The notes under the pieces: generated by a model
The model's database searches: none
What the model was told of the DNA's origin: nothing
The model's input: the letters and a program-made list of their open reading frames with translations, nothing else
Position numbers and translations under genes: made by a program
NCBI GenBank assembly: GCA_000004985.1
Contig: GG738854.1
Reading direction: 5' to 3' (one strand)
Source: Naegleria gruberi
Taxonomy: Eukaryota
Length of the DNA: 64,000 nt
Part shown: positions 4,668 to 60,904 of the stretch, one piece after another
Position numbering within the stretch: position 1 is the first letter of the stretch
How the letters are laid out: every line of letters starts with the position of its first letter

Positions 4668-7211
4668 TTATTTTCTTGTTTTCAGTCTCAATTCCAGAGG
4701 GAGAGAATTGACATCAACCTTTGAACAGCCACCAACATGAATTGTTTGCAACTTTGAACATGCTTTGGCAATAGTAACAAGTCCCTTATTAGTAATATCA
4801 CAAAATCTTACATCCAATTCTTCCAAATTAGTTAAAGAACTCAACTCGGTTACCCCCTTGTCATGAATTTGATCCTCTCCTAAATTCATTACATAGAGCT
4901 TTCTCAAAGATTTCACATTTCCAATCATGGCGCAACCAGCATCACCAAAAGCTGTGTTTTGTTTCAAATCCAAAATTTCCAGCTTTGATAAATTAGCCAA
5001 TTTTCCAAGAGAATTTAATGAGTTACCAATGATTGAATCAGCATAAAGATGTTTAAGATTGGAGAAAGTACTGATCGTATTGAAAACGTCTTCGCTCATT
5101 GTCGCCCTACTCAGATTCAAAACTTGAATAGTATGATTATTTTTGAGGCCTAAGAATTCCTCTCCAGATATTGCATAACCCTCAAGTTTCAGAGTGTGTA
5201 ATGTCTGTATTGTGTTAAGTGCTGTAAAGAAAATATATGCATTTGCCTTCTTCTCGTGTCCAAAATGGTTTCTATCAAATTTACAATCCAAAACTTGAAG
5301 ATTTTTCCAATTAGCAACACAATCTCCAACGTCACTAATGAAATTACGACTTTCAATTCTAATAATTTCCAAATTGGGCGTGTGAGTAACAAACTCGCTA
5401 GTTATGAATGTAGTCGGTCCACAATATTCCAAATGTTTCAAAGCATAATTGGTTTCTGCAAAAACTTTTGCAAAATTCTCATCCAAATAGTAAGATCTTG
5501 AATTTGTCATCTTTGTCCTGAGAACACTTCTCCCAAAGCAAATTTTCTCCAGATTGTTAAATTTACGTACGGCCAATGTTATTAAAGACTCAAATGTTTC
5601 AATTCCTTCAATATTGAGCTCGGTTATTTTGGTACAAAGAGAATTGTCAGTTGTAAAGAGTTCTAATTTCTCAACAAGATTGTTCTCAATTTCATTTTCA
5701 TCAGCTAATTGGATAGTTCTCTTAGGGAATGAAAAAAGGTAATGGCTTATTGGATAAACTATTGACATTTGGTGTCTATGTAGACTTTGAATTTGAATGA
5801 GGTGGGATATTTCTTGAAATGAAAGGTTTGTACTTTCAACATGGAGATATTTAAATATAAATCTTGGCTTGTTAGCTTCCTTAAACTTTCCAAAATATGT
5901 TTTGATAAATTTAGAATAATTTAGTATTCCATCAAAACAACATGTTTTTGAAAAGCTGCCACCATAAAACTCTATCACAACCTCCTGAATTTTAAAAGGT
6001 AGATTTGAAAGTAATTGAATTGTAGAAGATCCCATCCTCACAAGATTGGTTGCTCCACTGTGACTTCTACTGCGAGCAGAGTTTGGAGTGCTGACTTCCT
6101 GGTTATTATTTACACACATGTCAACACTCAACTTGGGCCGTCTCTTTGTTGTTCCTGTTGACAGTCTTGGCATGGATAGAGCCTTTTTTGGAGGGGAAGG
6201 AGGTAATTTTACAACTGGATTAAGGTAAATTGATGGAGCCATTTCAAAGCTCTTCTTTTGTTTCTTTGGAGGTGATTCCTTCTTTTTTGGTGATTTCTCG
6301 CTTTTTGGTTTATCTACACTCACACTCTTTGAGTAAATGTAAGCTCTTACTGGAGATGAAGGAGCTTTCCTTATTGCCCTAGATGATGGCTTAACAATTG
6401 ATAATCGAGGTGGTACCTTTTTAGTTTCCTCCATTTTCTTATTGGCATCCATAAAAGCAGTTGCAGTAAATGTTGGTGCTGTTGATGCTGCATTGGCAGA
6501 AAGAGCCTTCCTTCCCAAACTGCTAAACATGGGAGAAGTTGGTGGTGATGCTTGCTGAAGAACCATATCCTCATCATCCATTGAGTGTTTTTTCATATTT
6601 GGAATGGGTGATAATTCCATGCTATCAATGCCAACCCTCTTCTTATTGGCAGTCAAATATCCGAGTGTTGAATTATTATCAGAAGTGGGTGAGTGTCTTT
6701 CATGATGAGAAGGAGGTGATAATGATGATGGTGGTGATGATGAATGGTGCTGTGAAGAGTAGGATGAAGAAATTCTTACTTTAGCCTCACTTGAGGGTAT
6801 ACTTGTTGAATCGGAGAGAACTACAGATGATACTCCCTTATATTTTCTAATGTTTTGAGGTGTTTGTGAAGGATTAGGACCCATGGCCAAATCTACATAT
6901 AAATGTTCCTCTGCTCCATTAAAAGTTGAATTATTATTCTCACTGATCATACTGAAGGAATCTTCTTCCATCAAATCTGAGGGAGTCAATAATAATGTAT
7001 CATCAACATCCATTCTTTTTCTTGTGGGTGAGGAGGGTATCGGAGGAAGAATAATTTGTCTACTCTGTTTCCTCTTTAATGATGATAGAGGTTCAAACAG
7101 AACAACTTCCTCCTCTGAAACTGCTGTCCTCAATAGAAATTCAACTGCTGCATTATTGGGCGTTGATGAGGGTGCAAAATAGCCTGATGAATAACTACTG
7201 GTTTTTTTCAT
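4668..7211 (-). CDS. F-box/LRR protein (cysteine-containing leucine-rich repeats, AMN1/GRR1-like) with long S/P/K-rich disordered N-terminal half
   Basis: 847-aa ORF with ATG at 7211. C-terminal half has LRR_cc-type repeats (LEELDVRFCDITNKGLVTIAKACSKLQTIHVGGCSKVD; LKHLYADSIIGNSL..LEILDLKQN). A possible F-box-like segment LSNLPFKIQEVVIEF precedes them. Confidence 0.6.
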   Translation of the reverse strand: MKKTSSYSSGYFAPSSTPNNAAVEFLLRTAVSEEEVVLFEPLSSLKRKQSRQIILPPIPSSPTRKRMDVDDTLLLTPSDLMEEDSFSMISENNNSTFNGAEEHLYVDLAMGPNPSQTPQNIRKYKGVSSVVLSDSTSIPSSEAKVRISSSYSSQHHSSSPPSSLSPPSHHERHSPTSDNNSTLGYLTANKKRVGIDSMELSPIPNMKKHSMDDEDMVLQQASPPTSPMFSSLGRKALSANAASTAPTFTATAFMDANKKMEETKKVPPRLSIVKPSSRAIRKAPSSPVRAYIYSKSVSVDKPKSEKSPKKKESPPKKQKKSFEMAPSIYLNPVVKLPPSPPKKALSMPRLSTGTTKRRPKLSVDMCVNNNQEVSTPNSARSRSHSGATNLVRMGSSTIQLLSNLPFKIQEVVIEFYGGSFSKTCCFDGILNYSKFIKTYFGKFKEANKPRFIFKYLHVESTNLSFQEISHLIQIQSLHRHQMSIVYPISHYLFSFPKRTIQLADENEIENNLVEKLELFTTDNSLCTKITELNIEGIETFESLITLAVRKFNNLEKICFGRSVLRTKMTNSRSYYLDENFAKVFAETNYALKHLEYCGPTTFITSEFVTHTPNLEIIRIESRNFISDVGDCVANWKNLQVLDCKFDRNHFGHEKKANAYIFFTALNTIQTLHTLKLEGYAISGEEFLGLKNNHTIQVLNLSRATMSEDVFNTISTFSNLKHLYADSIIGNSLNSLGKLANLSKLEILDLKQNTAFGDAGCAMIGNVKSLRKLYVMNLGEDQIHDKGVTELSSLTNLEELDVRFCDITNKGLVTIAKACSKLQTIHVGGCSKVDVNSLPLELRLKTRK

Positions 7212-7329
7212 TGTTATTCCTCTCTCTAGTGTATAATATCTCTTTCAACCTTTATATCCCAGAAAATGATCCTTGTATCTCCTCTAATAATAATAGCAAT
7301 AATATTGAGTGTTGTTTTTGGCTCAAAGT

Positions 7330-7830: not shown

Positions 7831-9222
7831 ATGACTTCAAGTGTACAACCATCTACTCCACCTCTAGGCGCAACAGGAGTTGATGAAACAACACCTCTCT
7901 TTGAGAGTACTCTCCTTATTGAAGATCAGGATAATTTGTTAATGTCTGATCTCAAGAATAATCAAGAAAGTGCCCTATTCGAAACAATTGATAAGGATAA
8001 TATTGACAGCAACTTTACCATTGAAGCGAATACTTCTGGTGGGGTTGATTTTGATGCAAATATATTCAATGATGAAGAATTTGGCAATTTAGCATCTGCC
8101 TTCACAACTGAAACAAAGGAAGAGGAACAAGTGGCAAAAAGTCCAATTCTCATTGAAGTTCCCTCCAATGCAAACTTTTTCAATATGAAAAGCTCACAAG
8201 AATATACCATTGAGGAGGATCAACCATTCCTTGAAACCTTTGAAATGCACCAGGAGAAACTCGAGCAAGAAGAGAAACCTTCTGATGTTGCCCCTTTCAC
8301 AGATGCTTCTGAATCTTCGTTCATGGCTGGAACTTCTAATTTGAATGATAAGATGGATATGGCACCACCAACTAGATTGAAATTCAGTGTTGAAGGATCT
8401 TACACATCCTCATCCACAACAGATCCACTAACCTCATTCACAGCTCCCAGTATTTCAATAATGGAAGCTGATGATAATCCCTTTTCATTAACTTCTCCTC
8501 AGGACTTTTCCTCAAATGTTTCATCGAATGGATCAACAAGTGGATTTTCAAATAATCATTCTGCTAGATCGTCTGACAACTCTCCTCCCTCCAAATCAGT
8601 TAAAACTGAAAACAAGTCAAGTGCAAGTCAGAGATTGGAAAGAGATGATGACTTGTCTGGTTATACTTCAGATGTGTCATCTGAGGAGGGAGAACAGAAA
8701 CTTCCTGGTATTTCCAAAACTCCCTACTTTGAACTTCGAATCACACTTTCACAATTCAACTTTTTCAGAGTTGTGAGAGTACCTCAATTGGTAAATCTCA
8801 ACGATTTGTATATTATTTCAATGGAAGCACTGGATTGGGATGATGATAAGTATAGAGAACATCCACATTATTTCAGAGATGAAGGTGGAAGAATCTTCGC
8901 CAGCTCAATACGTACATTATCTAACATTCCACCTGAAGAAGAGGACAATGTTAAAGATGAAAAGACCTATCTTTTAAATCAGGTGCTCAAGCATGAAAGA
9001 AGTACTCTCACGTTGTACTATTCCAGTAAGAAGGAGTGGATTGTCACTATTGCCCTTCAAGAAATATTCGATGAGAAGCCACCCAAAGACAAATACTCAC
9101 AAGCGGTTTACTGTGTTTCTGGGCGAGGAGGGGGCATTAGTGAAGTAGACTCATCCAAGGAAGGTAAATTTGATAAATCCAGTGTAAACAAACGTCTACA
9201 AGAAATCAAACCCACCGAATAA
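7831..9222 (+). CDS. Acidic, serine-rich hypothetical protein (463 aa)
   Basis: ATG at 7831 with A-rich context. Long non-repetitive ORF. No recognisable domain. Confidence 0.5.
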   Translation: MTSSVQPSTPPLGATGVDETTPLFESTLLIEDQDNLLMSDLKNNQESALFETIDKDNIDSNFTIEANTSGGVDFDANIFNDEEFGNLASAFTTETKEEEQVAKSPILIEVPSNANFFNMKSSQEYTIEEDQPFLETFEMHQEKLEQEEKPSDVAPFTDASESSFMAGTSNLNDKMDMAPPTRLKFSVEGSYTSSSTTDPLTSFTAPSISIMEADDNPFSLTSPQDFSSNVSSNGSTSGFSNNHSARSSDNSPPSKSVKTENKSSASQRLERDDDLSGYTSDVSSEEGEQKLPGISKTPYFELRITLSQFNFFRVVRVPQLVNLNDLYIISMEALDWDDDKYREHPHYFRDEGGRIFASSIRTLSNIPPEEEDNVKDEKTYLLNQVLKHERSTLTLYYSSKKEWIVTIALQEIFDEKPPKDKYSQAVYCVSGRGGGISEVDSSKEGKFDKSSVNKRLQEIKPTE

Positions 9223-11578: not shown

Positions 11579-13223
11579 CTAATGTGAAATTACACTAAAT
11601 ACCAAATAAATCAAAGAAATAAATACCAATGAAATGAACGAGAATGAAACAGTGTTTGCTCCAGCACAAATGAATCTATCCAAAGGAAGAACATAGGCAC
11701 TGGTGGAATATTTCAATTCAGATGGTCCATAACCAGTGAATGTCATTTCAATAGTGAATGCAGTATAACCAATCTTTGGATTTTCCACATCAACACTCCA
11801 TGTCAATGAGTCAACCTCAGTCAAAGTCTTGGAATTAAAGATGGATCCAACATGACTGTATCTGAAATCTCTCGAATAAGTATTTGTTCCGTACCATAAC
11901 AATACCTTACTTGGTTTAATTCCATTTGTAACCTTAACCCAAATTCTGAGTCCATTCGAAATAGTTTCATTGTAGAAAGTATATTGTGGAAGAAGTGAAT
12001 TTCTCGTGGTTGCATAGTAATAAGCAAGGACTGATTGGGGAACATCAGATCCAGCTAAAGAGTGTCCAGTATTAGGCACATAACGAATATATTTTGTGGA
12101 CAATCCTGGAATTTGTTGATAACTGAACAAACTCAAATCTGGCCACATAAATTCATCTCCCATGGCATTGATCATATAGGTTGGTATATTTGTATACCTA
12201 TCTCTATAATTGAATGGATCGACAGCTTGTGCCAATAAATCAAATGCAGTAGTATTCAATTGATTTAAAACTCCTAAATTTTTGTAATCTTGCAAAGCTT
12301 CTGGCCAAGCACAAATTGATTTGTTAATATGTAGGAAACATTCTTTCAAATTCATTATTTGAATAACAATTGGAATTAAACTCTTAATTCTAATTAATTG
12401 AAATTATTTCCAACCATTTCGAATATTAGAACTCAACCATTCTAAACTTGTTTAAACTTACCTTGAATCCCTACTAGCTCCAACCAACCAAGTAGCCCAA
12501 CCACGTTTACTCGTTCCAGCAATTGTAAATTTTTCAATAGAAAATCCAATTTGCTTACTCACAAAATCCTGAATCACATCCATCGCTCTAACTGATGTCT
12601 TGGCCATTGCAAAATGAGATAACCACTCATAATCTTCAACATTGTAAACTGTTCTATTCATGGCCATGTTATTATTCATTCGCTCCATAAATTTCATCCA
12701 CGAGAAGGACATGATTTGATCTTCAGATCTACTAGTTTTGGAACTATCTGATGCGAAAACAATTGGCTGATTTGGAACGGATAATAACATGGAAGAAACT
12801 GTTTGCGAATTTGTGGAAATTGCTTGAAGAATTGCATTTCCTGTTGGCATTTCCATTCCAGTTTTTCCTGCTTCGATTAGTAAGAAACCTTCCTTGATGG
12901 ACCGATCTAGAGTTTTAGGAATGGAAATTAGTAGATAGTGTGACCTATTCATGTGTTGGAAAGCTTTCGAATAAATTAACTTACCAAGAAGAGGCTGAGC
13001 CAATTTCTGCATCTGTTAACCAGTTGACACCTCGCATGGTGATTGTGTAGAAAGTGCAATCGGAATAGGTAGTTGTAGCTGAGATGGAATAGGACATGCT
13101 TGGGGAAGGTTGCTTTAGGTACAAATCGAACATTGTGTCTTGAGAAGAAACTTGAAGAAACAAGACACAACCAAGCAAAATAAAAGAAAGTGAACGAATG
13201 GCAAGATGACAGCTCGAAGACAT
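11579..13223 (-). CDS. PhoPQ-activated pathogenicity-related (PqaA-like) secreted serine hydrolase, 3 exons about join(11579..12380,12462..12944,12985..13223)
   Basis: Signal peptide MSSSCHLAIRSLSFILLGCVLFLQVSS at ATG 13223. Nucleophile-elbow motif IAGTSKRGWATWLVGA. C-terminal hydrophobic tail. Introns of about 40 nt (GTAAGT..AATAG) and 81 nt (GTAAGT..TTAAG). The three ORF-track pieces 12981..13280, 12458..13012 and 11579..12355 join in matching phases. Confidence 0.6.
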
Positions 13224-14342: not shown

Positions 14343-14344
14343 AT

Positions 14345-15472
14345 CTAGTTGAATGTATTCCACAAATTCATCAAAGTTCTGTCCTTAATAGAATAAGGAA
14401 CATCCAAAATTCCTCTCAAAATCTTGAGCATATCTAACCCCATCGTTAGTCCAAGGAAACCAGCAATTTCACCAAACAAACTTTCAATTGAAGAAGTGAC
14501 AACCTCGGTAATGTAATTCACATTCAATGTAGCGTATGCAACAGATATCACAACCAATGTTTCGTCTGCTCCAATTAGCTCAACATCAGAAGTTACAGGC
14601 TCCCATCTAACATCGACTAATTGTGGATTAATAGGAGTTGTTTTTAATCTTGAAGTGATAATTTTGGTCAACATGAAATAATTGTCTCTTCTTGGAACTG
14701 CAAAGTTTGTTTCTCCAACTAGATCAGGCATTGTTCCATTTGAATGGAATGACACCTGCAGGCCAACTCTCGAGTAGTCGCTTACATCTGATCCTGTTGG
14801 TCTTGGTACTCGAACAAAGAATGACAAACTACCAGTATAACCTGTATAATTTGCAGTCACAACATTAATGGATCGATTGTTGAAAACATAGCACCTAAAC
14901 AATGAATCATCTTGTCGTATTTCCTTATATTCAGCTTGTTGTAGGTATTCAGGAATATCTTTTTGGATATCAGCCCTAAACACTTTCTCCAATCTCAGCC
15001 CACAATAACTACAGTTATTTGTTAGTGCATTCCAATTACAAATTGAAATAGCTGGAAAGGGAAGCGGTACCTCCTCAACATATGACAAAGAGGTGGTTGG
15101 ATTATTAATCGCATCCACAAAGTTCACAATTGAATTAATCGAATACCATAACGAAACACCAATCATTACAATCCAACCAATAGCTGTTAATATCTGATAC
15201 CATCTCAGAGGTATCTGCCATCCACAAATAGTTCTCTTTCTTTTGTGCTTTTCAGATTCTGCAGGCTCATTATTTCCAAATTGATTATTCGTATTATTCT
15301 TAGATTTGTTTCCTCCAATAATTACATCAAATAAGGATAAATTCTTTGAGGATTTTCTTTTCGATAATTTCTTTCCAATTGTTGGAATTTCCACTTCATG
15401 AGGTGAATCCAATCGGGTAGTATTTTGTTGAGCAACTTGTTGAGGGTTATTTGAAGAATTATTCTTCATCAT
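14345..15472 (-). CDS. ENaC/degenerin (amiloride-sensitive Na+ channel superfamily)-like small channel subunit
   Basis: TM1 ILTAIGWIVMIGVSLWY followed by PFPAISICNWN (hallmark FPAVTIC-like post-TM1 motif). A Cys-containing extracellular region of about 200 aa. TM2 with G-x-S-like filter LFGEIAGFLGLTMGLDML. Paralog of 16011..17177. Confidence 0.6.
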   Translation of the reverse strand: MMKNNSSNNPQQVAQQNTTRLDSPHEVEIPTIGKKLSKRKSSKNLSLFDVIIGGNKSKNNTNNQFGNNEPAESEKHKRKRTICGWQIPLRWYQILTAIGWIVMIGVSLWYSINSIVNFVDAINNPTTSLSYVEEVPLPFPAISICNWNALTNNCSYCGLRLEKVFRADIQKDIPEYLQQAEYKEIRQDDSLFRCYVFNNRSINVVTANYTGYTGSLSFFVRVPRPTGSDVSDYSRVGLQVSFHSNGTMPDLVGETNFAVPRRDNYFMLTKIITSRLKTTPINPQLVDVRWEPVTSDVELIGADETLVVISVAYATLNVNYITEVVTSSIESLFGEIAGFLGLTMGLDMLKILRGILDVPYSIKDRTLMNLWNTFN

Positions 15473-16010: not shown

Positions 16011-17177
16011 ATGCTGAACAAGAAAAAGACGGTTCAATTCTCTGATATTTTAAAAGAGGAGGTGGAGAATGATGTTTATTCAGTACAAAAAACAACTTCA
16101 ACCAAGGCCAATAATACTGCTACTACTATTTCTCCAGAGGATATCAAGTCGATCAAGGAAAAGTTGGAAAAACCAATTTCTAGAGAAGTTGCTATGGAAA
16201 TTAAAAAGAAGGCGATATTAACTTCGGATAGTGATGCTGTGCAAGATTATTTATTTGAGGAAGATGGTGGACAGGAAGGCGAGGAGGAAGAGGATCCGAG
16301 TGATTGTTTGGAAAGAAGAATAGGAGTTAAAGTTAAGGATGTGATTTTGATTTATGCATGGTTGATATTGGGAGCATTATTGATTTATTATGTTTATTCA
16401 TCAGTTAATACCTATGTTGTGGACAGAAACAAGCCAGCGACCAATGTTGCATACACAGCTCAATCAAAACTCTCATTTCCTGCTGTCACAATATGCAATT
16501 GGAATACTGGAGATGATCCTGTGAATGATATTGCCTTGGATTATTGTTTTCATGCAACGTCAAATGATTCAACTCACGAAGAATGCAAATTTCCAATTAC
16601 AAAGAAGAAAATTGTTAGTGGAGATCAGATTTTCTCCTGCCTAGTTCTGAATAATGACACCAGAACTCCTCTCCAAGCCACAAAAACAGGTTATTTGGGC
16701 ACCATCTCTGTAATTGTGACCATCAAAAATGTTACATTATCCTCTGGAGAGATTAGATCCTCTGGAGTCCAAGTTACCTTCCACAATATTGGAGAAACAG
16801 CACAAGATTTGCTTCTCAATGAAACAAAGTGTGCAACTCCAAACTTTGATAATAATTTCTCAATTTCTAAAGTTGTGAGCCACACCATTAGACCAACACC
16901 ATTTACCAAAACTTTTTGGGAATCCTCTTATTCAGCAGTAGAATTGGTAAAACAGAGGAATAACAAGATTATGGTTTCATTTGCTTACAACACGCTGAAC
17001 ATACAACAGGTAACAGAATATGAAGCAAGTAACTGGCTACAATTATTAGGAGAAATTTCAGGCATGGCCAGCACACTTTATGGATTTGGATTTGTTATGT
17101 TTTGGAGAACATGTTTGTGGTTACCAATAGCAATCAAGAAAAAGTCTGTAAAGGTAGTTTGGGAGGAGCTGAACTGA
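16011..17177 (+). CDS. ENaC/degenerin-like small channel subunit (paralog, divergently oriented to 14345..15472)
   Basis: ATG at 16011 (AAAAAAAATG). TM1 VILIYAWLILGALLIYYVY. LSFPAVTICNWN motif. Extracellular Cys-containing domain. TM2 SNWLQLLGEISGMASTLYGFGFVMFW. Confidence 0.65.
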   Translation: MLNKKKTVQFSDILKEEVENDVYSVQKTTSTKANNTATTISPEDIKSIKEKLEKPISREVAMEIKKKAILTSDSDAVQDYLFEEDGGQEGEEEEDPSDCLERRIGVKVKDVILIYAWLILGALLIYYVYSSVNTYVVDRNKPATNVAYTAQSKLSFPAVTICNWNTGDDPVNDIALDYCFHATSNDSTHEECKFPITKKKIVSGDQIFSCLVLNNDTRTPLQATKTGYLGTISVIVTIKNVTLSSGEIRSSGVQVTFHNIGETAQDLLLNETKCATPNFDNNFSISKVVSHTIRPTPFTKTFWESSYSAVELVKQRNNKIMVSFAYNTLNIQQVTEYEASNWLQLLGEISGMASTLYGFGFVMFWRTCLWLPIAIKKKSVKVVWEELN

Positions 17178-18335: not shown

Positions 18336-18998
18336 ATGTTGCAACAAGAAAATGTCAACATGTTGGAGAATAACAATATTTGGCTCATTGATGGCTTGGT
18401 CTCGGAGGAGGAATGCCAGGAAATTATAACAAATGAATGTGAAAAGAAGGAATTTGAGAGTGGAACTTATAATAATGCACAAGACCGTTCCATCAGAAAT
18501 AATTCTCGGCTCATCATGGATAATCAAAATTATTCTAATTGGTTATGGACACGAGTTAAAGATTATATTCCAAAATTGGCATCCGAGCTCAGCAATAAGT
18601 GTGTGAGAAGAGCTACAACTATTGGTTATGAATTATGTGAATTGAGCGATAAGATTAGATTTTACAGATATTACAAGGGTGAATTTTTTGCTCCTCATTC
18701 AGATGGTGGAATTGTATTGGAAAGTGTGGAAACTATTGATGGAGAGGAATATTATGTGACCAAAAAGAGTTTTCTCACTTTATTGTTGTATCTGAATGAA
18801 ATTCCAAATGGAGGGGGTGAAACTGAATTTCTCAACAAGAATACTAAACAAGTGGAGTGGTCTGTAGAGCCAAAACCTGGAAGGATTTTACTGTTCGTTC
18901 ATGAAAATTATCATCAAGCCAAAACTGTGAATCAGGATGGAGATGTAAAGTTTGTGATGAGAACTGATGTGCTTTATAGACATCTAACCAAAAAATAA
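18336..18998 (+). CDS. 2OG-Fe(II) oxygenase (prolyl 4-hydroxylase-like, P4Hc)
   Basis: HxD..H iron-binding triad: FAPHSDGG and RILLFVHENYHQAKTV. ATG at 18336 in A-rich context. Confidence 0.65.
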   Translation: MLQQENVNMLENNNIWLIDGLVSEEECQEIITNECEKKEFESGTYNNAQDRSIRNNSRLIMDNQNYSNWLWTRVKDYIPKLASELSNKCVRRATTIGYELCELSDKIRFYRYYKGEFFAPHSDGGIVLESVETIDGEEYYVTKKSFLTLLLYLNEIPNGGGETEFLNKNTKQVEWSVEPKPGRILLFVHENYHQAKTVNQDGDVKFVMRTDVLYRHLTKK

Positions 18999-22131: not shown

Positions 22132-24366
22132 TTATTTTCGTTCAAGTGAAAATTGAACAAATAAGGCATGCAATATCTGCTCTGGTAGAAATGAAACTTT
22201 TTCGCAATCATTGAAAAGTTCCTTGCAATGTTCAATTCCAAATAATAACAATTCTCTGTAAAAATCTTTGAAGGAATCTAAGTGTAGATAATTTTTACAT
22301 GATATTGCAATTTTGTAATAATTTGCAGTTGTCAGAACGAAATTATTCTTGCAGAATTCGAGTAGGTTGCTTATTTCATGTCTCAATGCCAAATCAATTA
22401 ATTCAATCTGTTTTGTTGCATCAAATTTAAATGGTATTCCATAACAAGATTTGATAACAATTTCCAATAATTCCAAATCCTCTGAAGGGTCTGGAACAAA
22501 AACACCATCATCACTGAGATCACTAAACGATGATCCACTATCAAAGAGTGCATCAAAGAATATGCTAGAAGAGCTCAAAACAGTTTTGTGGCAATACAAA
22601 TACTTGTCTAGCCCTAGTTTCACTTTGATGTCACCTGTTTTCTCGTCATTGTATAGGTCAACGAGGCCTCTTGGAGGAATTTCAACTTTTTCATCAAGGT
22701 TGATGATTGTCTTTTGAGGTATTGCCATTTTTTGAATAATCGAAACACTATTCTTAAGAACAATTGGACTATTTCCGAGTGGAACGCTATTTTCAGTGGA
22801 TTTTAAACGAAGTGCAGCATATTCCACAAAGTATTCATGTATGTATTCAAAAATCTTGTTTTGTAAGGATAGGTCTTCATTGCAGAATTTGAGATGTGTT
22901 TCAATTTGTTCCCATTGAGAGGTGAATCTTTCAACTGTAATTGACTCTACTAATTTCTTCACTAAATTCTTTTTCAAGTTGATAAATTCACCATTTTCAA
23001 ACAATCCCAATAACGATAAAACATTCAATATCTCATGTTCCATGAATTCCAAATTATCATTTTGATATATGAGTGAGTTAATCAATCGTTGAATTATTTC
23101 TCTTTGGCATAAATTAATCTTACTAAGAAGGTATTCATTTTGCAAAATAATTTTGCAAAATTGGGGTGATTTCTTTTCGATTAATGGGATAAATCCATAA
23201 ATATCCAAAATATTGATTTGATCTCTGGCTTGTTTCTTCAGTTTTGGAATGTGTGTAGAAGTAATTCCAATATGTGGGTAACGTGAGATATCGAAAAATG
23301 AATCACCACTATTTCCTTCTCTTCCATTTCCTGCAATTGTTACAATATTTCCATTTTGTAATATCTTTCTAATTCTTTGATTACTTTGATCGGCAATATA
23401 AACTTCATTTGATGAGACAAAAACACTTGAAGGCCGATTGAGCATTGTATCAATTGCAGGCACATTATCATCACCATACCCTTCCTTTCCATTTCCTGCA
23501 ATTGTTGCAATATTTCCATTTGCTAAAATCTTTCTAATTCTATGGTTGCCAGTGTCTGCAATATAGACTTCACCATTTGATGAAACAAAAACACTTTTTG
23601 GAAAATTGAGAGAAGTATTTGTTGCCAATATGTTATCCTCATGAAATCCCACGAGTCCATTTCCTGCAATTGTTACAATATTTCCATTTCTCAATATTTT
23701 TCTAATTCTATGGTTGCCAGTGTCAGCAATATAAACTTCATTATTTGATGTCACGAATACACTTGAAGGCCGATTGAGCATTGCATTAACTGCAGGCACA
23801 TTATCATCACCATACCCTTCCTTTCCATTTCCTGCAATGGTTACAATATTTCCATTCGACTCAATCTTTCTAATTTTGTTACGGTTTTGATCTGCAATAT
23901 AAACTTCATCATTTAATGTCACGAAAACACCTGAAGGACGATTAAGCATTGCATTAATCGCAAGTCTATTATATACTCCTTTACCATTTACATTATTTCC
24001 AGCAATTGTTATAATATTTCCATTTGTTAAAATCTTTCTAATTCGATTATTAAAATAATCAGCAATATAAACTTCATTATATGGAGAAACAAACACTCCG
24101 ATTGGATAATTCAGCATGGCATTAGTTGCAGGACCATTATCACCACTAAATCCATTTTGTCCATTTCCTGCAATTGTCACCATTTTTCCATTGGTTAATA
24201 CCTTCCGAATTTTATGATTGCCAATATCAGCAATGTACACTTCGCCATTCGATGAAACAAAAACACTTGAAGGACCTTTAAAGTTTGCATTGGTCGCTAG
24301 TAACAGTTGCATTTTCAGTTTTTTAAGCCTTGATTTTTTATCTTCAGTTGTTGCTCTTCTTTTCAT
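22132..24366 (-). CDS. NHL-repeat beta-propeller protein fused to a C-terminal BTB/POZ (and BACK-like) region
   Basis: At least six NHL repeats, e.g. NGEVYIADIGNHKIRKV..TIAGNG. C-terminal BTB-like YLYCHKTVLSSSSIFFDALFDSG. ORF starts at TTG 24411; first ATG is at 24366 (AAAAAAAATGAAAAGA). Confidence 0.65.
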   Translation of the reverse strand: MKRRATTEDKKSRLKKLKMQLLLATNANFKGPSSVFVSSNGEVYIADIGNHKIRKVLTNGKMVTIAGNGQNGFSGDNGPATNAMLNYPIGVFVSPYNEVYIADYFNNRIRKILTNGNIITIAGNNVNGKGVYNRLAINAMLNRPSGVFVTLNDEVYIADQNRNKIRKIESNGNIVTIAGNGKEGYGDDNVPAVNAMLNRPSSVFVTSNNEVYIADTGNHRIRKILRNGNIVTIAGNGLVGFHEDNILATNTSLNFPKSVFVSSNGEVYIADTGNHRIRKILANGNIATIAGNGKEGYGDDNVPAIDTMLNRPSSVFVSSNEVYIADQSNQRIRKILQNGNIVTIAGNGREGNSGDSFFDISRYPHIGITSTHIPKLKKQARDQINILDIYGFIPLIEKKSPQFCKIILQNEYLLSKINLCQREIIQRLINSLIYQNDNLEFMEHEILNVLSLLGLFENGEFINLKKNLVKKLVESITVERFTSQWEQIETHLKFCNEDLSLQNKIFEYIHEYFVEYAALRLKSTENSVPLGNSPIVLKNSVSIIQKMAIPQKTIINLDEKVEIPPRGLVDLYNDEKTGDIKVKLGLDKYLYCHKTVLSSSSIFFDALFDSGSSFSDLSDDGVFVPDPSEDLELLEIVIKSCYGIPFKFDATKQIELIDLALRHEISNLLEFCKNNFVLTTANYYKIAISCKNYLHLDSFKDFYRELLLFGIEHCKELFNDCEKVSFLPEQILHALFVQFSLERK

Positions 24367-27937: not shown

Positions 27938-28999
<1,062 letters not shown>

Positions 29000-37205: not shown

Positions 37206-37248
37206 ATTCTATGATTGGCTGTCAGCTTTCAATTTTACAATAAAAAAA

Positions 37249-38091: not shown

Positions 38092-38257
38092 TGATGGAAC
38101 ATAAATTGAGTTTAGAATATTCAAATATTGCTAGAAATAATTATTTTCTGTTCAATAAACCCAGTATCAGTTATACTAAAGTACTTCATATCATGCCGCG
38201 GTATTATCTTTCGAATAATTTCACAGTTTACAAAATATTATTTTTTTTTTTAAAAAA

Positions 38258-39046
38258 ATGTCATCACAACAATCTAATATTATTGATGATAATCAATCCA
38301 CAATGAAAAAACATGACAAAAATAGCCAAATTTCTCACCACCACAAGAAAAATCTGGCAAGTCAACCTGAGGAAATTATTGAGCAAATATTCGAATTTAT
38401 ACCTAGAGATGAAATTATTCGTGTATCGGGAACTTGCCAGCAATTCAGGAGATTGTGGAAAGAAAGTCCTCATGGAATAGTTTTTAACATGATTATTCAA
38501 CTAAACTATTCCTTTCAGAAATATTCCTATTCTTTGAATGATGAAATTGAATTGGGAATATATACAAAGGAAACAATTAGTAGAATGATTTGTAAGAAGG
38601 AAAAGGAAAGGCAACAGTTATTTAATCTTGAAAAGAAAGATCGATTGTTAACTAAATTAAGTGGAAAGGAAAATATTTCTGAAAATTTCAACAAGGCAAT
38701 TAAATTGATTACAAGATTTGATTATGAAGAAATAGAAAGAGAACACAATAATTCACCGTGTTATGCACGTGGATTTGAAATTGAATTTGGTCAACTTGGA
38801 ATGATGCAACTTTGGAAATGGAATTATTTAAGAGAAGACCACAGCGAATTATCAGCCAAAATGTCAGAAAAATTGAAATCATTGAATTTAACAGAAGATG
38901 AATGGGATTTCATTATCAAAATGGCATGTAACTATATTAATTTATCGAGGGTTGATTTGGATGATTTTTACTATCAAGAAATTCGCGAATCAATATTTAA
39001 GGACCATTATATTATGACCAAACCTATAATTTCTTTCAGGTTTTAA
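38258..39046 (+). CDS. F-box-like family member C (262 aa)
   Basis: ATG at 38258 (AAAAAAATGTCATCA). PEEIIEQIFEFIPRDEIIRVSGTCQQFRRLWKES. LNLTEDEWDFIIK. Confidence 0.6.
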   Translation: MSSQQSNIIDDNQSTMKKHDKNSQISHHHKKNLASQPEEIIEQIFEFIPRDEIIRVSGTCQQFRRLWKESPHGIVFNMIIQLNYSFQKYSYSLNDEIELGIYTKETISRMICKKEKERQQLFNLEKKDRLLTKLSGKENISENFNKAIKLITRFDYEEIEREHNNSPCYARGFEIEFGQLGMMQLWKWNYLREDHSELSAKMSEKLKSLNLTEDEWDFIIKMACNYINLSRVDLDDFYYQEIRESIFKDHYIMTKPIISFRF

Positions 39047-55491: not shown

Positions 55492-57165
55492 TTATTGTTT
55501 GTTTTCTAATTTTGAAACTCTATCAAGAAGCATTTCTAATTGAGATTTGAGGAATAAATTCTCCTGTTCAACTCTCCTCACATGCTTGAAAACAAAATTC
55601 AATTGTCTGGCAGAGAGATAATGAATGAGATTCCTTGTAGTTTCGTAAGATGCAACACTGTAAGGTGTTTGACCTCTCTTGTTTCTAAAATTGACATCTG
55701 CACCATTGGAAATCAGTAACTCAATGATTGGGCACCAATTTCTCTCAGCTGCATAATGTAAGCCAGTTTCTAATTCATCATCACATAAATCTATTTGAGC
55801 TCCATAGCTGTAGAGAAGTTTAGTCACAGAGAATAACCCCAATTTACAAGCCAACATGAATGGCGAACGGTTATTCTTGTCCAAAGTGTCCACGCCCACA
55901 TTAGGTTGACTAAGAAGGAATGAAAGCAACTCTTCATTGTTATTTCTTACTGCAGCATGAAGAGGGGACTCAAAACAGGCTCCATGTTGAATGGCAAAGT
56001 CAAAATCGTTAGGATAGTTAGTCATTATATATTTTACAATGTTGGATCTGTTAAATTTAGTGGCAGAGTAGAGGAAGTATTCGTTAGGGTTTGATTTTTC
56101 TCGAATCAAGTATTGCTTGTAATTATTTTCAAAGAGAACTTTGAATGCCTCAACATTGTCTTGACACGATAAAAGAACATAGATTGCATTTCTCCCATTA
56201 ATATCGTACTTGTGAGGTTGGGCTCCAAATTCAATCAGTCTTCTCAACTTTTCCAAATCAATAGTCTCTCTTCTGATTTCTTCAGTGAGTGCCTTGTTGA
56301 GAACAATTCTGTTAATGTTTTGGTTTGGTGTCAGGTCATTCAAAAGTGGTGGAATGTTTCTCTGCAGTCTGGACTCCAATAGGAACATGTACATTTCCTC
56401 TACCATCTCTGTGGTACCTAGCTTACATGCCAATTCATAGCCATTCAGAGTATAGTCAATCAGAGTCTTCTTACAAAGCTTATTTGGCTTGGTCAATTGG
56501 CTTATATTGTAATTTACCAATTCGCTTAACATTTCAGGTGAATAGAGCAACAATCTCACATCATTCTGATAAATTTCTCTTGCCAAATTTCTATCCTTAT
56601 TAACAACAGCCCATTGAAACTCAACCACAGAATTACAAGGAAGAAACACATCATTGGACAAGTGATATTGGAAAGGACAAACTTTGGAATGTTTCAAATT
56701 CTCAAAAAATCGTTGAATTTCATTCTTAATATGAACATTCTCAATAGTTTGAGTTCCAATATTCTCTCTAGTGAATGGAGACTCTGAATTGTGATTTATC
56801 AACCATTGACTAATCAGTTCCTTCTCATATGTTCTTCCATCTCCAGCCAAATAGGGCTCTACCATTATTATATCACTTATTGGACAAAACAAATCATCGG
56901 AAGGTTGCAAAGACTCAAAGTCTACTTCTTCATCTTGTTGACTATTGTTGGCTGGTTGTATGGTTGCAGTTGAAATATTATCAATAACCAAATTTTCAAG
57001 CCTTTGATTTTCTACCAGTAAATTCTCTTCTTCATAATCAACAAGACATGGTTCTTGCTTGTTAGTGGAAGGATTCATATTCAGTAAGACAATTGGTTCT
57101 TCTCCCATTTTCTTTTCATATTGTTCTTCCATCAGATTACAATTAATTTGAGTTGATAAGGTCAT
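55492..57165 (-). CDS. U-box E3 ubiquitin ligase-like protein with C-terminal ankyrin repeats
   Basis: U-box core DLFCPISDIIMVEPYLAGDGRTYEKELISQWLINHNSESPFTRENI. At least 3 ANK repeats (SPLHAAVRNNNEELLSFLL; SPFMLACKLGLFSVTKLLYSYGAQIDL; TGLHYAAERNWCPIIELLISNGADVN). ORF starts at TTG 57171; first ATG at 57165. Confidence 0.7.
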   Translation of the reverse strand: MTLSTQINCNLMEEQYEKKMGEEPIVLLNMNPSTNKQEPCLVDYEEENLLVENQRLENLVIDNISTATIQPANNSQQDEEVDFESLQPSDDLFCPISDIIMVEPYLAGDGRTYEKELISQWLINHNSESPFTRENIGTQTIENVHIKNEIQRFFENLKHSKVCPFQYHLSNDVFLPCNSVVEFQWAVVNKDRNLAREIYQNDVRLLLYSPEMLSELVNYNISQLTKPNKLCKKTLIDYTLNGYELACKLGTTEMVEEMYMFLLESRLQRNIPPLLNDLTPNQNINRIVLNKALTEEIRRETIDLEKLRRLIEFGAQPHKYDINGRNAIYVLLSCQDNVEAFKVLFENNYKQYLIREKSNPNEYFLYSATKFNRSNIVKYIMTNYPNDFDFAIQHGACFESPLHAAVRNNNEELLSFLLSQPNVGVDTLDKNNRSPFMLACKLGLFSVTKLLYSYGAQIDLCDDELETGLHYAAERNWCPIIELLISNGADVNFRNKRGQTPYSVASYETTRNLIHYLSARQLNFVFKHVRRVEQENLFLKSQLEMLLDRVSKLENKQ

Positions 57166-57925
57166 GGTCAATTATATTCAATTTACAATTTCAGACTTTG
57201 GGTAATTTTACAATTTGTATATATTTACAAGGGCATATATTTACAGTGTTTTACAAATATTAATATTGGATTGTAGTGAGGTGGTTATACACTTTCCGAT
57301 ATTGAAAATTAAATTGATGAGGAGAATACCAAATTCAAAGATAACTGATTCAGTGCCAAATGATGATTTGAATAAAGCTTGCACTATTTTTAATGTTGGT
57401 GCTTTTTGTTTTGTGGTTTGCGATTCTCTGTTTTGGATAGACAAGATTTTCAAACGTCTTGCCTCAATCGTTCTCGGCGAGTGTTGTATTTTGTTGTTAC
57501 TTGTTGTTGCTTGTAATATTAGTATTAATAATAGACACTAGGGTTTACAATTTTGCCAAGGCAGATTACAAATTGATGATTTTGGGAGAGAAATATGATG
57601 AGTGGCTCTTGATTGAGTGTAAATATGACTTTTAGAGAAGGACATTCTCTTTCAGTTAATTTCATTATTGAATCCAAGTAGTAATATTATTAGATTTTGA
57701 TTGTATTTAAAATAATATATGAGTTTTTTAATAATAATATTCAATCATGATGGAAACTTTATTAGGAACCAATCATTTCATTGTATACAACGTTTCACAA
57801 AATTTAAAGGAAATAGAGGAACAAAATATTCCTAATAGAGTTTTAAAACAATAAGGCAATCATCCTGCTAAACACAATGCAAACTTGATTTCTTTGCCAC
57901 GAATCAAAATTTATTCAAGATAACT

Positions 57926-60904
57926 TTACAAAAGTCCTAACAATAAAAAACCAATAGAAATAAAGGTCAAACCTGATGTTTGGTAATTAGTGAAGGCACT
58001 ACTCAATTTGAAACAATTTTGGGAAGAGCAAACACATTCAAACTTTGAAATTGGATCCAATGTATAGTTATAATTTTCTATATTTGCACAGAAGGGAGTT
58101 AATACTTTGATTTGATTGGTTACAGATATAATGAGCTCACCATTTTCAGTAAGAATGATGGAATGTGGATTATCCAATACCAACTTGTCATTTTCTGCAC
58201 CTGCAATTGTGGTTATAACACCTGTATCATTGTTGATCATTCTCAATCTGCCATTAATTGTGTCAGCAATAATTATGTTTCCTTTTTTGGTGACAGCAAC
58301 ACCAGTTGGAATATTAAGTTTCGAGTTAGCTGCTTTGTCACCATCACCAGAGAGTCCAATCAATCCACTTTGACCAGCAATTGTTGTAATAACTCCATCC
58401 TTAGAAACCTTTCTAATGGTTGAATTGTTCATCAAATAGAGCTCATTAACCACTTCATCATAGAAGAATTCATTAACAAGGATTGAAGAAGAGGTGCTTA
58501 CAACATTGTCTTTTGGAGGAATTGTCTTAATAGACAATCCATTTCCAGCAATAGTCGAAATGACTCCATCTTTGGTAATCTTTCTGATTCTAGTTTGTTC
58601 ATTGAAAATAAGATCTCCTGATTTGGTCATCTTCATACTACCATAAACAGTTCCAATCAATGCGTTGATTGCTAAACCTCCATCGCCAACTCCTCCCATA
58701 ACTACTGAAACAATTGGATTCTTATCTAGTCCAGTTAGTGGCATTTTACGAATTCTGTTATTCTGCATATCAACAATGAATAGGTTATTATCAAAGATAG
58801 CCAATCCTTGGGGAATATTTAACAATGTTTCAGATACAGGTAAATTATCGCCTCTGGAAGTGAGATACGACCTATCATCACCTAAAACTCCATTAATTTT
58901 TGAATTTGAGTCAATTCTCATTATCATGTCACCAGTTGTAATGTAAATTTCATTTGTTTTTTGATTGAAAACTATACCACCAGGAGTAGGCACAGATGTT
59001 TCAGTAGCTAAACTTCCAAATTGAGTTGTTTGTGATTTTCCATTTCCTGCAATGACCTGCACTGAACCGTCAACAATCTTCTTTACCATGTTATTGAATG
59101 TATCACATACATACAATTCTTCTTCATTATTGGCATTAACTTTCAACATCATGTGTGAAGGATTCTTCATTCCAGATGCTATAGTTATAATAGATCCATT
59201 GATAAATCTTTTTTTAACTGAGTTTCGCTCCAGTATGAATATTTCATTTGTGAGAGGGGATTGAATGGCATGACTTGGATAATCTAATCCAGACACGATT
59301 GTTGTAATAATTCCATTAGAAACCTTTCGAATGGCTTGATTACCATTATCTGCAATTAGTAAGTCTCCACTTGAAGTTAAAGATAATCCACTTGGAGAAA
59401 ATAATTGAGCCTTATTGGAAGGACCATTGTCACCTACATCACCTGCCTCTCCTGTTCCAGCTACAGTTGTAACTATACCACTCTTTCCGTCAATCTTTCT
59501 AACACAATTCAGATAACCATCCGAAATGAAAACATCTCCATTACTTGGGTCTACAACAACACCATATGGATCTACCACAGATGCAGTTGTAGCTGGTATG
59601 TTATCAATTAGTTTTCCTTGATTAGTTCCAATAATAGTTGAAACAGATTTATCTGCAGCAGACATTTTCTTAATGACTGAATTTTGGTAAAAGAATACAT
59701 CCTGAGTAGATGGATCAAAAGTGAATGATCTCAAATTGTCGTCAAGGAAAATTCTTTTAGCTATTCCATCACTATTAGATACTTTTACAACATCTCCAAA
59801 TACGGAATCACCAATCCACAAGTCCTTTGTTTTAGTATCATATTGAAGATTGGGAACCCTCAAATTCAACAAGCTTGCCTTGATATTATCTCCCTTGAAA
59901 ACAGACTTTCCATTACCCATTACTCCATTGTAAAGAGTCTTTCCATTTTCGAACCTTAGTGAAAATATCTTGTTATTAGTATAATCTGAAACATAGATTT
60001 TACCACCCCAATAGCTGACTTGAAAAGGGACCATTTCAATTGTCAAAGCATCAACATTCTCTAGAGGCTTATCCACGGAAAGACCATTACCATTTCCAGC
60101 GATAGTTCTTAATACTCCAGTTTTAGTATTAATGGCAAAAACTCTAAAATTTCCAGAATCGCTAACAATCAACTCCTCTGTTTGCGGATTAATAGTTAAG
60201 TAGCTTATACTATTAAAAAGACAATCCACAGCAATAGAACAAGATGCACTAAAACCAGACATTCCCTTAGTCCCTGCAAAATTTGAAACAATTCCACTGG
60301 AAACAGAAACACGGCTAATGGATGTAGATCCTTCAACATATAAATATCCATCATAAATAGCCATAGTATTTGGATCATTTAAACCTGCATCACTAATTAA
60401 TGTGTTTGTTTGCTTTGTTGCCAAATCGTAATACTTAATCACTGAAGCAGAATACATGGTGTAGTAAATTCTGTTGTTTTTATCATCAACTAGAATGCTT
60501 CTTGGATCATCTTCTGTTAAGACACTAGTTTCACCAGAGGTAAAATTGTACACTGCTAATCCTTGAACACCATTGATGAAATATGCAACGTTGTCAGAAA
60601 ATGTGCTGAAATAGGGAATTACAGGTCTATCAGTAGCTAGTGGTACAGATTTGATGAAGCCACTTGATTTATCAATTTTGAAAAGATCATAATTGTAATA
60701 ATAAATTTCACCAGCAATTGGAGATATCCCAAAATACCAAGCAGAAAAAGGAATTTGTAAAGCTGAAACTGAATTACCAAATGGATTTCCACCAATAAGA
60801 GTTGATTCTTTAAAGAGAGGTGGAACTGTACTGACTTGACAATTGCACCAAGTCAATATGCAGGCAATCAAACAGGTTGCAATAATGAGTGTAACTGTTT
60901 GCAT
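57926..60904 (-). CDS. Giant cell-surface NHL-repeat protein (signal peptide, more than 15 NHL-type beta-propeller repeats, C-terminal hydrophobic anchor)
   Basis: ORF starts at GTG 60928; first ATG at 60904 (MQTVTLIIATCLIACILTWCNCQ signal peptide). Repeats such as LLIADNGNQAIRKV and LFIVDMQNNRIRKM. C-terminal SGLTFISIGFLLLGLL. Confidence 0.65.
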   Translation of the reverse strand: MQTVTLIIATCLIACILTWCNCQVSTVPPLFKESTLIGGNPFGNSVSALQIPFSAWYFGISPIAGEIYYYNYDLFKIDKSSGFIKSVPLATDRPVIPYFSTFSDNVAYFINGVQGLAVYNFTSGETSVLTEDDPRSILVDDKNNRIYYTMYSASVIKYYDLATKQTNTLISDAGLNDPNTMAIYDGYLYVEGSTSISRVSVSSGIVSNFAGTKGMSGFSASCSIAVDCLFNSISYLTINPQTEELIVSDSGNFRVFAINTKTGVLRTIAGNGNGLSVDKPLENVDALTIEMVPFQVSYWGGKIYVSDYTNNKIFSLRFENGKTLYNGVMGNGKSVFKGDNIKASLLNLRVPNLQYDTKTKDLWIGDSVFGDVVKVSNSDGIAKRIFLDDNLRSFTFDPSTQDVFFYQNSVIKKMSAADKSVSTIIGTNQGKLIDNIPATTASVVDPYGVVVDPSNGDVFISDGYLNCVRKIDGKSGIVTTVAGTGEAGDVGDNGPSNKAQLFSPSGLSLTSSGDLLIADNGNQAIRKVSNGIITTIVSGLDYPSHAIQSPLTNEIFILERNSVKKRFINGSIITIASGMKNPSHMMLKVNANNEEELYVCDTFNNMVKKIVDGSVQVIAGNGKSQTTQFGSLATETSVPTPGGIVFNQKTNEIYITTGDMIMRIDSNSKINGVLGDDRSYLTSRGDNLPVSETLLNIPQGLAIFDNNLFIVDMQNNRIRKMPLTGLDKNPIVSVVMGGVGDGGLAINALIGTVYGSMKMTKSGDLIFNEQTRIRKITKDGVISTIAGNGLSIKTIPPKDNVVSTSSSILVNEFFYDEVVNELYLMNNSTIRKVSKDGVITTIAGQSGLIGLSGDGDKAANSKLNIPTGVAVTKKGNIIIADTINGRLRMINNDTGVITTIAGAENDKLVLDNPHSIILTENGELIISVTNQIKVLTPFCANIENYNYTLDPISKFECVCSSQNCFKLSSAFTNYQTSGLTFISIGFLLLGLL

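Follow-up and report, generated by a model that had tools for sequence, protein, structure and literature searches.

Ubiquitin-system genes in a 64-kb stretch of the Naegleria gruberi genome: a probable chance grouping of members of large gene families, including one old tandem F-box array

The grouping of ubiquitin-system genes in a 64-kb stretch of the Naegleria gruberi genome (the whole stretch of DNA analysed, called the window here) is most likely a chance juxtaposition of unrelated members of large, lineage-expanded families, to which one old tandem array has been added; we put the probability of this reading at about 0.75. Several unrelated BTB and F-box adaptor types and one U-box ligase would simply happen to fall within 64 kb of a polyubiquitin gene, each gene presumably acting alone, with the common pathway as the sole tie among them. 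That the grouping is due to chance we infer from a small background sample and from the literature. The BTB and F-box repertoires of Naegleria are very large and fast-evolving, so windows with several such genes are expected to arise by chance.

The window is an ordinary nuclear stretch of a 665-kb scaffold of N. gruberi NEG-M; nine of its ORF products match annotated proteins of this strain exactly, and all nine are encoded on one 665,159-bp contig. Among its approximately 30-40 genes, 6-7 are solid ubiquitin-system genes by Pfam (about five independent loci), a density of 15-20% of genes. The cut-offs used are the Pfam gathering scores (F-box 20.5 bits, U-box 21.4, BTB 20.5), and Pfam scans of the remaining ORFs of the 64-kb window and of the gaps between them found no further ubiquitin-system domains.

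Ubiquitin-system and related genes of the window

The genes concerned are the following (coordinates are those of the window):

1434-2611, plus strand: cysteine-tail gene A, in two overlapping reading frames, with an F-box-like N-terminus and a cysteine-rich stretch at 2495-2584
4668-7211, minus strand: LRR protein of 847 aa (NAEGRDRAFT_57283), with a low-complexity N-terminal half and C-terminal LRRs
22132-24366, minus strand: NHL-repeat propeller plus BTB protein of 744 aa (exact match to NAEGRDRAFT_64426)
27938-28855, minus strand: polyubiquitin of 305 aa, four head-to-tail 76-aa ubiquitin units and a terminal Asn
33494-36053, minus strand: RCC1-repeat propeller plus two BTB domains; main ORF 33494-35704, with more RCC1 exons upstream to about 36053
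36367-37205, plus strand: tandem copy 1, F-box destroyed; a pseudogene, or a gene for an F-box-less 185-aa product from 36648
37249-38091, plus strand: tandem copy 2, with an F-box of 22.6 bits (Pfam; cut-off 20.5) and a family-specific C-terminal domain
38258-39046, plus strand: tandem copy 3, 262 aa, with an F-box of 26.8 bits (Pfam); exact match to NAEGRDRAFT_64435
40724-42460, plus strand: cysteine-tail gene B, 578 aa (NAEGRDRAFT_78780), with an F-box-like N-terminus and a cysteine-rich C-terminal tail at 42083-42172
55492-57165, minus strand: U-box plus ankyrin-repeat protein of 557 aa (exact match to XP_002680319.1)

The polyubiquitin gene, the U-box/ankyrin E3-like gene and the two BTB adaptor-type fusions named in the initial annotation are all borne out. 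Pfam scores ubiquitin in the first at 418.8 bits over four stretches; its units follow one another without spacers and end in GG plus one extra residue (N), as those of polyubiquitin do. At the DNA level they form a repeat with a period of 228 nt, whose units are 77-84% identical to each other, and the same 305-aa protein, identical throughout, is encoded in N. fowleri and N. lovaniensis. Cleavage of this protein would, judging by its domain family, supply free ubiquitin. The U-box, at residues 92-158 of ORF 55492-57171 (minus strand), scores 44.7 bits (cut-off 21.4) and is accompanied by an Ank_2 match of 89.5 bits; the protein is probably a single-subunit E3 ligase, a prediction from its sequence, and its U-box would be expected to bring in an E2 enzyme directly. 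The database name of XP_002680319.1, "homeobox transcription factor", is a mislabel.

The NHL-BTB protein has NHL repeats at 118.7 bits and a BTB domain at 31.8 bits (cut-off 20.5) by Pfam, and the NHL repeats recur in the DNA as five copies with a period of 168 nt. The RCC1-BTB protein has RCC1_2 at 104.6 bits and BTB at 92 bits over two stretches (Pfam), and RCC1-like ORF pieces were found upstream of its main ORF. Both have the architecture of a Cul3 substrate adaptor, namely a BTB domain joined to a separate protein-binding domain, and by analogy with their domain families they would link Cul3 to targets held by the NHL or RCC1 propellers. Numerous BTB proteins do not act as Cul3 adaptors, and no BACK domain was reported in these BTB proteins by Pfam at E <= 0.1.

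The gene at 4668-7211 had been described as an F-box/LRR gene, and the LRR part of that description stands. LRR_6 and LRR_4 lie above the Pfam cut-offs, and in a PDB sequence search the closest solved relatives, matched across the LRRs alone, are FBXL17 and FBXL2. The F-box part finds no support: Pfam found no F-box in the protein, including a scan of the isolated segment at E <= 10, and hhalign comparison with the F-boxes of the window gave a probability of 0.3% (a single-sequence AlphaFold model of the candidate F-box segment, with pLDDT below 50, is unreliable). The analysis thus corrects three gene calls: a decayed tandem copy (below), this LRR protein, in which no F-box is detectable, and the U-box/ankyrin protein that wrongly bears a homeobox name.

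Other candidates were discarded. The 2OG-Fe(II) oxygenase encoded at 18336-18998 is unsupported as a Skp1 prolyl hydroxylase, its sole solved relative being a transmembrane prolyl 4-hydroxylase (E = 1e-4), and a FAU-type ubiquitin-like fusion on the RPS30 gene (about 3763-3837, minus strand) is ruled out by stops in all frames directly upstream. The initial annotation had drawn its region from 4668 to 60904; the 1000-aa gene that sets the right end (57926-60904) encodes a secreted-type NHL-repeat protein in which Pfam found no ubiquitin-system domain. A DUF4116 domain is also present in the window (Pfam).

The tandem F-box genes and the cysteine-tail family

The three neighbouring genes at 36367-39046 form a same-strand direct repeat with a period of about 0.9 kb (spacing 889-952 nt), and are a tandem array. 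Their DNA is 65-80% identical within conserved blocks. In an all-against-all BLASTP comparison copies 2 and 3 are 47% identical, and copy 1, with 38% identity to both, is a genuine paralogue. Copies 2 and 3 are intact, with F-boxes above the cut-off (the UniRef name of copy 3 is "F-box domain-containing protein"), but Pfam finds no F-box in copy 1, where a DNA alignment reveals a 16-nt deletion that removes the codons for the helix-1 residues IIEQIF and shifts the frame. The three tandem F-box-like genes called initially are therefore two intact genes and one that has lost its F-box. The array is old and holds a lineage-specific F-box gene in three copies, of which one has already decayed, in what looks like classic birth-and-death evolution, and it is probably the only locally generated part of the window. 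Its F-box proteins would be expected, from their domain families, to bridge Skp1-Cul1 to targets held by their C-terminal domains.

The situation is less clear for the two genes with polycysteine tails (the only such tails in the window), both of which had also been called F-box genes. The N-terminus of gene A scores 19.9-20.6 bits as an F-box in Pfam, on either side of the cut-off of 20.5, and that of gene B is sub-threshold at 13.4 bits (E = 0.074). The N-terminal consensus of the family, LDxDxLxxIxSFxP...SLKxxC, resembles the F-box pattern; at full length an F-box was scored by Pfam in none of six members, and a profile of seven cysteine-tail N-termini matched no F-box protein in the PDB. 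The tails thus stand, as does a borderline F-box in one gene, but the other gene falls short of the cut-off, and gene A lies outside the region that the initial annotation covered. The two overlapping frames of gene A imply an intron or a frameshift. Its C-terminal part is 28% identical to gene B over 99 aa (BLASTP), and the two genes, 38 kb apart, are distant paralogues; they may be a much older dispersed duplicate pair. The gene B protein is 100% identical to XP_002680191.1, and a search of 1.84 billion representatives yielded only six relatives, all from Naegleria; this work points to a small family, specific to Naegleria, whose members carry a cysteine-rich tail. One member of the family in N. 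lovaniensis likewise has a BTB gene and an LRR_6 gene as flanking neighbours, a hint that these families may tend to lie together. Micro-synteny of the cysteine-tail and LRR genes between N. gruberi and the N. lovaniensis locus L007 was considered and rejected, as the LRR proteins lack similarity even at E < 1.

Frequency of ubiquitin-system genes

The initial annotation held that the window is strongly enriched for ubiquitin-system genes and that such clustering is not expected by chance. As a background we used 55 neighbour genes from N. fowleri and N. lovaniensis loci, a sample that is centred on related genes and comes from species other than N. gruberi; two of the 55 (about 3.6%, both BTB-type) are of the types in question. 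For about five independent loci in 30-40 genes against 2/55 the Fisher P is 0.09-0.12. With 3.6% as background, the binomial P for about five independent loci is 0.004-0.014 per window; the excess over this proxy background is thus a nominal one, and several such windows would be expected by chance among the approximately 640 in a 41-Mb genome. Against the chance reading stand the raw density in the window (15-20% of genes, compared with about 3.6% in the sister-species sample), a Fisher P of 0.01-0.03 when all genes are counted instead of loci, and a binomial P < 1e-3 for a true background of no more than 3.6%. The gene category was picked after looking at the window.

The expansion of BTB and F-box genes in Naegleria is already known. 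These two are picked out among the families that diversified in N. gruberi (PMC4327156, supplementary text). Of the additional domains that Naegleria Ras-superfamily GTPases carry, none is more frequent than the F-box (PMC8296547, Additional file 4); 72 F-box and 24 BTB annotations are listed for these GTPases (PMC8296547, Table S8), and birth-and-death evolution is seen in some F-box-bearing Rab-like clades (PMC8296547). A literature search for published genome-wide F-box, BTB and U-box counts in N. gruberi gave qualitative statements and this GTPase table only. The initial annotation had itself allowed that the families might be so abundant genome-wide that the window would not stand out, and the qualitative statements on BTB and F-box expansion in these papers (PMC4327156; PMC8296547) bear this out in part.

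Origin of the grouping

It had also been suggested that the region is prone to duplication of adaptor families, and one could go further and regard it as a nursery in which Cullin-RING adaptor genes arise by repeated local duplication and divergence. The all-against-all BLASTP comparison of the window proteins links the three tandem genes (38-47%), the two cysteine-tail genes (28%) and the NHL propellers, and also an ASC/ENaC-like pair and a GTPase-like pair; at the DNA level, repeats in the window are confined to the ubiquitin units, the NHL units and the 0.9-kb array. The trio with its decayed copy and the two cysteine-tail paralogues are what a nursery would leave behind, and the other old duplicates (the ASC and GTPase-like pairs and the NHL propellers) and the nominal excess over the sister-species background are in keeping with one. 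On the other hand, just three of the ten listed genes are interrelated (five with the cysteine-tail pair). The U-box, LRR and polyubiquitin genes are singletons in the window by BLASTP, and the NHL-BTB and RCC1-BTB proteins gave no BLASTP match to each other, so they are not paralogues; the suggestion of duplication thus holds for the trio and the pair but not for the BTB, U-box, LRR or polyubiquitin genes. Moreover, all of the duplicates are old (28-47% protein identity), recent segmental repeats are absent from the window, and since unrelated families (ASC/ENaC-like, GTPase-like and NHL) also hold old duplicates, duplication is not specific to ubiquitin adaptors and any tendency toward it would be general. 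We therefore consider a nursery unlikely. Somewhat more doubtful is a related possibility, a genuine excess with this part of the scaffold acting as a hotspot of Cullin-RING adaptor birth and turnover, one that includes the Naegleria-only F-box-like/cysteine-tail family as membrane-tethered SCF adaptors; the cysteine-rich tail might then be a membrane anchor.

A functional cluster of ubiquitin genes, kept around polyubiquitin by co-regulation or by a role in one pathway, would be one of the rare cases in which genes of the ubiquitin pathway lie physically clustered in a free-living protist, and the birth of ligase adaptors could be studied there. The co-occurrence itself speaks for it, as does the N. 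lovaniensis cysteine-tail gene that also lies beside BTB and LRR_6 genes. Synteny comparison with related species, which the initial annotation had proposed as a check, speaks against it, as neither N. fowleri nor N. lovaniensis has the grouping. In these two species the polyubiquitin gene (on VFQX01000003.1 and PYSW02000043.1, respectively) has EF-hand, C2, DNA ligase and SpoU genes as neighbours, and the RCC1-BTB orthologue (51% identity) is on other contigs (VFQX01000012.1 and PYSW02000011.1) between DRMBL/TRAPPC10 and Ku/MutY-like genes; the two sister species are mutually syntenic at both loci, and when every window protein was compared with these loci by tblastn, the index genes alone gave matches. 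Within the window, the ubiquitin-system genes occupy both strands and are intermixed with housekeeping genes for GDH, HIRA, RRS1, a lipid (DAGK-type) kinase and pirin. A functional cluster is thus very improbable. Giant viruses that infect amoebae commonly carry BTB, F-box, ankyrin, DUF4116 and ubiquitin genes, and the domain mix of the window (BTB, F-box, Ank/U-box, DUF4116, polyubiquitin) is the one feature that would suit an integrated giant virus or another horizontally acquired island. We give such an island almost no credence: the GC content is even across the window (32-39%), the interspersed housekeeping genes are cellular and some of them are split over several reading frames, orthologues lie in cellular contexts in the sister species, and Pfam found no viral hallmark domains in the scanned ORFs. 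Three window genes were also without relatives in a viral contig collection (single-protein queries, which reach close relatives only).

Comparison with known ubiquitin-system genes

The polyubiquitin gene is like the stress-type polyubiquitin genes (yeast UBI4, human UBB and UBC) in its spacerless head-to-tail 76-aa units and its one extra C-terminal residue, and its four units are nothing unusual beside them. RCBTB1/2 and IBtk are animal RCC1 plus BTB proteins that work with Cul3; the Naegleria RCC1-BTB gene has the same order, an RCC1 propeller and then the BTB domain(s), but its protein lacks the ankyrin repeats that IBtk has. Outside Naegleria its similarity to other proteins is low (22-30% identity), with an IBtk-like protein among the matches. 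The 847-aa LRR protein shares with the FBXL proteins FBXL17, FBXL2 and Skp2 cysteine-containing LRRs of the FBXL type, and it has a short "LPFKIQEVVIEFY" motif at the position expected for an F-box helix; it differs from them in its 380-aa low-complexity N-terminal half and in having no detectable F-box.

Expansions of the F-box and BTB adaptor families of Cullin-RING ligases within single lineages, with tandem arrays and a birth-and-death mode of evolution, are known from plants and nematodes and have been noted in Naegleria (PMC4327156; PMC8296547). In comparison with these, the array in the window is tiny (three copies), and the other adaptor-type genes of the window are not derived from it. 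What it shares with them is a diverged tandem array (38-47% identity), one frameshifted copy and genus-specific family members. Another shared trait is the large number of F-box and BTB genes and the variety of their partner domains.

Ubiquitin-system genes

Pfam analysis gives a solid count of six ubiquitin-system genes (seven including a borderline one) among the approximately 30–40 genes of the window, or about five independent loci when the tandem array is counted as one. No further ubiquitin-system domains were found in the remaining ORFs and gaps, and the right-edge gene (1000 aa) encodes an NHL-repeat protein in which Pfam finds no such domain.

Genes with Pfam-supported ubiquitin-system domains, followed by the weaker candidates
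22132-24366 (-): NHL and BTB; product identical to XP_002680312.1
27938-28855 (-): polyubiquitin, four units
33494-35704 (-): RCC1 and two BTB, with more RCC1 exons upstream to ~36053
37249-38091 (+): tandem copy 2, F-box above the gathering score
38258-39046 (+): tandem copy 3, F-box above the gathering score
55492-57165 (-): U-box and ankyrin repeats; product identical to XP_002680319.1
1434-2611 (+): cysteine-tail gene
4668-7211 (-): leucine-rich repeat (LRR) protein, 847 aa, identical to XP_002680306.1
36367-37205 (+): tandem copy 1
40724-42460 (+): cysteine-tail protein, 578 aa, identical to XP_002680191.1

The polyubiquitin gene, the U-box/ankyrin gene and both BTB fusions proposed by the initial annotation are borne out by these searches; its other assignments hold in part. 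Three tandem F-box genes had been proposed, and copies 2 and 3 carry the domain, but copy 1, a true paralogue (38% identity), has lost 16 nt, a frameshifting deletion that takes out the codons for helix 1 of the F-box ('IIEQIF'); it is a pseudogene or a remnant without F-box, a gene caught in decay. Two polycysteine-tail genes with F-box-like N-termini were also proposed. The window does contain two such tails and only two (one gene, at 1434-2611, lies beyond the 4668-60904 range claimed for the cluster), and the N-termini are F-box-like in appearance, but they score 19.9–20.6 bits in one gene and 13.4 bits in the other, where the cut-off is 20.5, none of the six family members scores for an F-box at full length, and the family profile matched no F-box proteins among solved structures. 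The presumed F-box/LRR protein has leucine-rich repeats of the FBXL type (its best solved relatives are FBXL17 and FBXL2), but neither Pfam nor hhalign detects an F-box in it, and nor does a structure model, which is too poor in that region for use.

Two of the confirmed genes raise points of annotation. NCBI and UniProt name the U-box/ankyrin product (XP_002680319.1/D2V6H9) a 'homeobox transcription factor'; Pfam sees only the U-box and ankyrin repeats, with no homeobox at E ≤ 0.1, and the name is likely a misannotation. A search for homologues of the RCC1-BTB protein returned no N. gruberi protein, though the gene is present at 33494-36053 (-); it may be unannotated or modelled otherwise. 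In place of a single gene model, its N. lovaniensis orthologue (locus L005:10001-12861) has two, one for RCC1 (506 aa) and one for BTB (287 aa).

The cysteine-tail proteins join an F-box-like N-terminus to a cysteine-packed C-terminal tail (for example, CCCWWGAMTCCC), a tail that might be lipidated and act as a membrane anchor. When 1.84 billion representative proteins were searched exhaustively, six relatives emerged and no more, every one from N. gruberi or N. lovaniensis. In N. lovaniensis (PYSW02000008.1, locus L007:7777-14790) a member lies between a BTB gene and an 829-aa LRR_6 gene, an arrangement that loosely echoes the window; the LRR proteins of the two loci show no similarity to each other.

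Relationships among the genes

All-against-all comparison of the window's proteins linked only three groups: the tandem trio (38–47% identity), the two cysteine-tail genes (28% identity over 99 residues, separated by 38 kb), and the NHL propellers of two otherwise unlike proteins. No match was found between the two BTB proteins, and the U-box, LRR and polyubiquitin genes have no paralogues within the window. Direct DNA repeats are limited to the ubiquitin units, the NHL units and a 0.9-kb tandem array, so there has been no recent segmental duplication in the window. Old duplicates of unrelated families are also present, namely two ENaC/ASC-like genes and two GTPase-like genes, so local duplication is a habit of the N. 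gruberi genome in general, without specificity for ubiquitin adaptors.

Character of the window

The GC content is about 33% across the whole window, and both strands are crowded with long ORFs. Nine ORF products are exactly identical to annotated N. gruberi NEG-M proteins, all from one 665,159-bp contig, so the window is ordinary nuclear DNA of this sequenced free-living amoeboflagellate.

Other genes of the window
3763-3837 (-): ribosomal protein S30, exon 1 (Pfam, 32 bits)
7831-9222 (+) and 11579-13012 (-): two genes with domains more familiar in bacteria, plasmid pRiA4b ORF-3-like (44 bits) and PhoPQ-activated pathogenicity-related protein (over two ORFs)
14345-15472 (-) and 16011-17177 (+): divergent pair with amiloride-sensitive sodium channel (ENaC/ASC) domains, 30% mutual identity
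25982-26668 (+) and 26957-27475 (+): neighbouring paralogues, 38% identity over 92 aa, weak P-loop GTPase similarity, not firmly assigned to any family

The two genes with bacterial-type domains are possible old horizontal acquisitions. Unlike animal FAU, in which a ubiquitin-like domain is fused upstream of S30, the N. gruberi S30 exon has no such fusion.

Comparison with sister species

Both N. fowleri and N. lovaniensis have a gene for the identical 305-aa polyubiquitin (on VFQX01000003.1 and PYSW02000043.1, respectively), with EF-hand, C2, DNA-ligase and SpoU-methylase genes around it in each species. Their RCC1-BTB orthologue, at 51% identity, is on separate contigs (VFQX01000012.1 and PYSW02000011.1), flanked by DRMBL/TRAPPC10 and Ku/MutY-like genes. 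Gene order at both loci is common to the two sister species, and none of the window's other genes was found there, so the grouping, which the initial annotation had proposed to examine by synteny, is absent from both species and is thus peculiar to N. gruberi or close relatives of it. Another N. lovaniensis locus (L008:3111-3375 (-), PYSW02000012.1) has an unannotated ubiquitin-like ORF with ~52% identity to ubiquitin, an internal frame change and no terminal GG, probably a decayed ubiquitin-like gene. This 22-kb locus and L009 (22 kb, PYSW02000067.1) are on different contigs and agree in gene order and almost exactly in gene sizes; what this assembly shows here is an uncollapsed haplotype or else a recent segmental duplication.

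Origin of the grouping

The initial annotation held that such clustering is not expected by chance. No published counts of these families for N. gruberi were found, and the background used here is a proxy from the sister species, the 55 genes flanking five independent loci; two of these genes have a BTB-type domain and none an F-box or U-box (~3.6%, with wide uncertainty). Fisher tests give P = 0.01–0.03 when every gene is counted and P = 0.09–0.12 for independent loci only; the binomial probability of at least five independent loci in 30–40 genes is 0.004–0.014 at 3.6% background and 0.016–0.048 at 5%. The category 'ubiquitin system' was picked only after the window had been inspected. The 41-Mb genome holds about 640 windows of this size, so several to dozens equally rich ones are expected. 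The literature points the same way: the supplementary text of a cross-eukaryote survey of 'ubiquitin toolkits' draws particular attention to the diversification of BTB and F-box in N. gruberi (PMC4327156), and in a re-annotation of Naegleria GTPases the F-box is the commonest extra domain (PMC8296547, Additional file 4), Table S8 carries the annotation F-box 72 times and BTB 24 times, and birth-and-death evolution is seen in some of the Rab-like clades that bear an F-box (PMC8296547).

The grouping is thus most likely a product of chance, in which unrelated genes from very large families came to lie near one another, together with one small, old tandem array in which one copy is already being lost. 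A region prone to duplication of adaptor families, as first suggested, would explain the tandem trio and the cysteine-tail pair, but accounts for no more than five of the ten; the BTB, U-box, LRR and polyubiquitin genes are unrelated to one another, and other families are duplicated as well. The absence of synteny in the sister species and the housekeeping genes in between contradict a functional cluster. A viral island is contradicted by uniform composition, by the cellular housekeeping genes and by three scans of viral contigs, with single-protein queries that reveal close relatives only, in which nothing matched. Each gene most likely acts independently in the usual manner of its domain type. 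Judging from their families, polyubiquitin would supply free ubiquitin, the U-box protein would serve as a single-subunit ligase, the F-box proteins are predicted Skp1-Cul1 adaptors, and the BTB proteins are predicted Cul3 adaptors that would bind targets via their NHL or RCC1 propellers.

The window's genes have been annotated since the 2010 genome, with the possible exception of RCC1-BTB, and the gene families and their expansion in Naegleria have been described before; worth noting here are the Naegleria-only F-box-like/cysteine-tail family and the homeobox label borne by a U-box/ankyrin protein. In plants and nematodes, tandem F-box arrays in which copies decay are well known.
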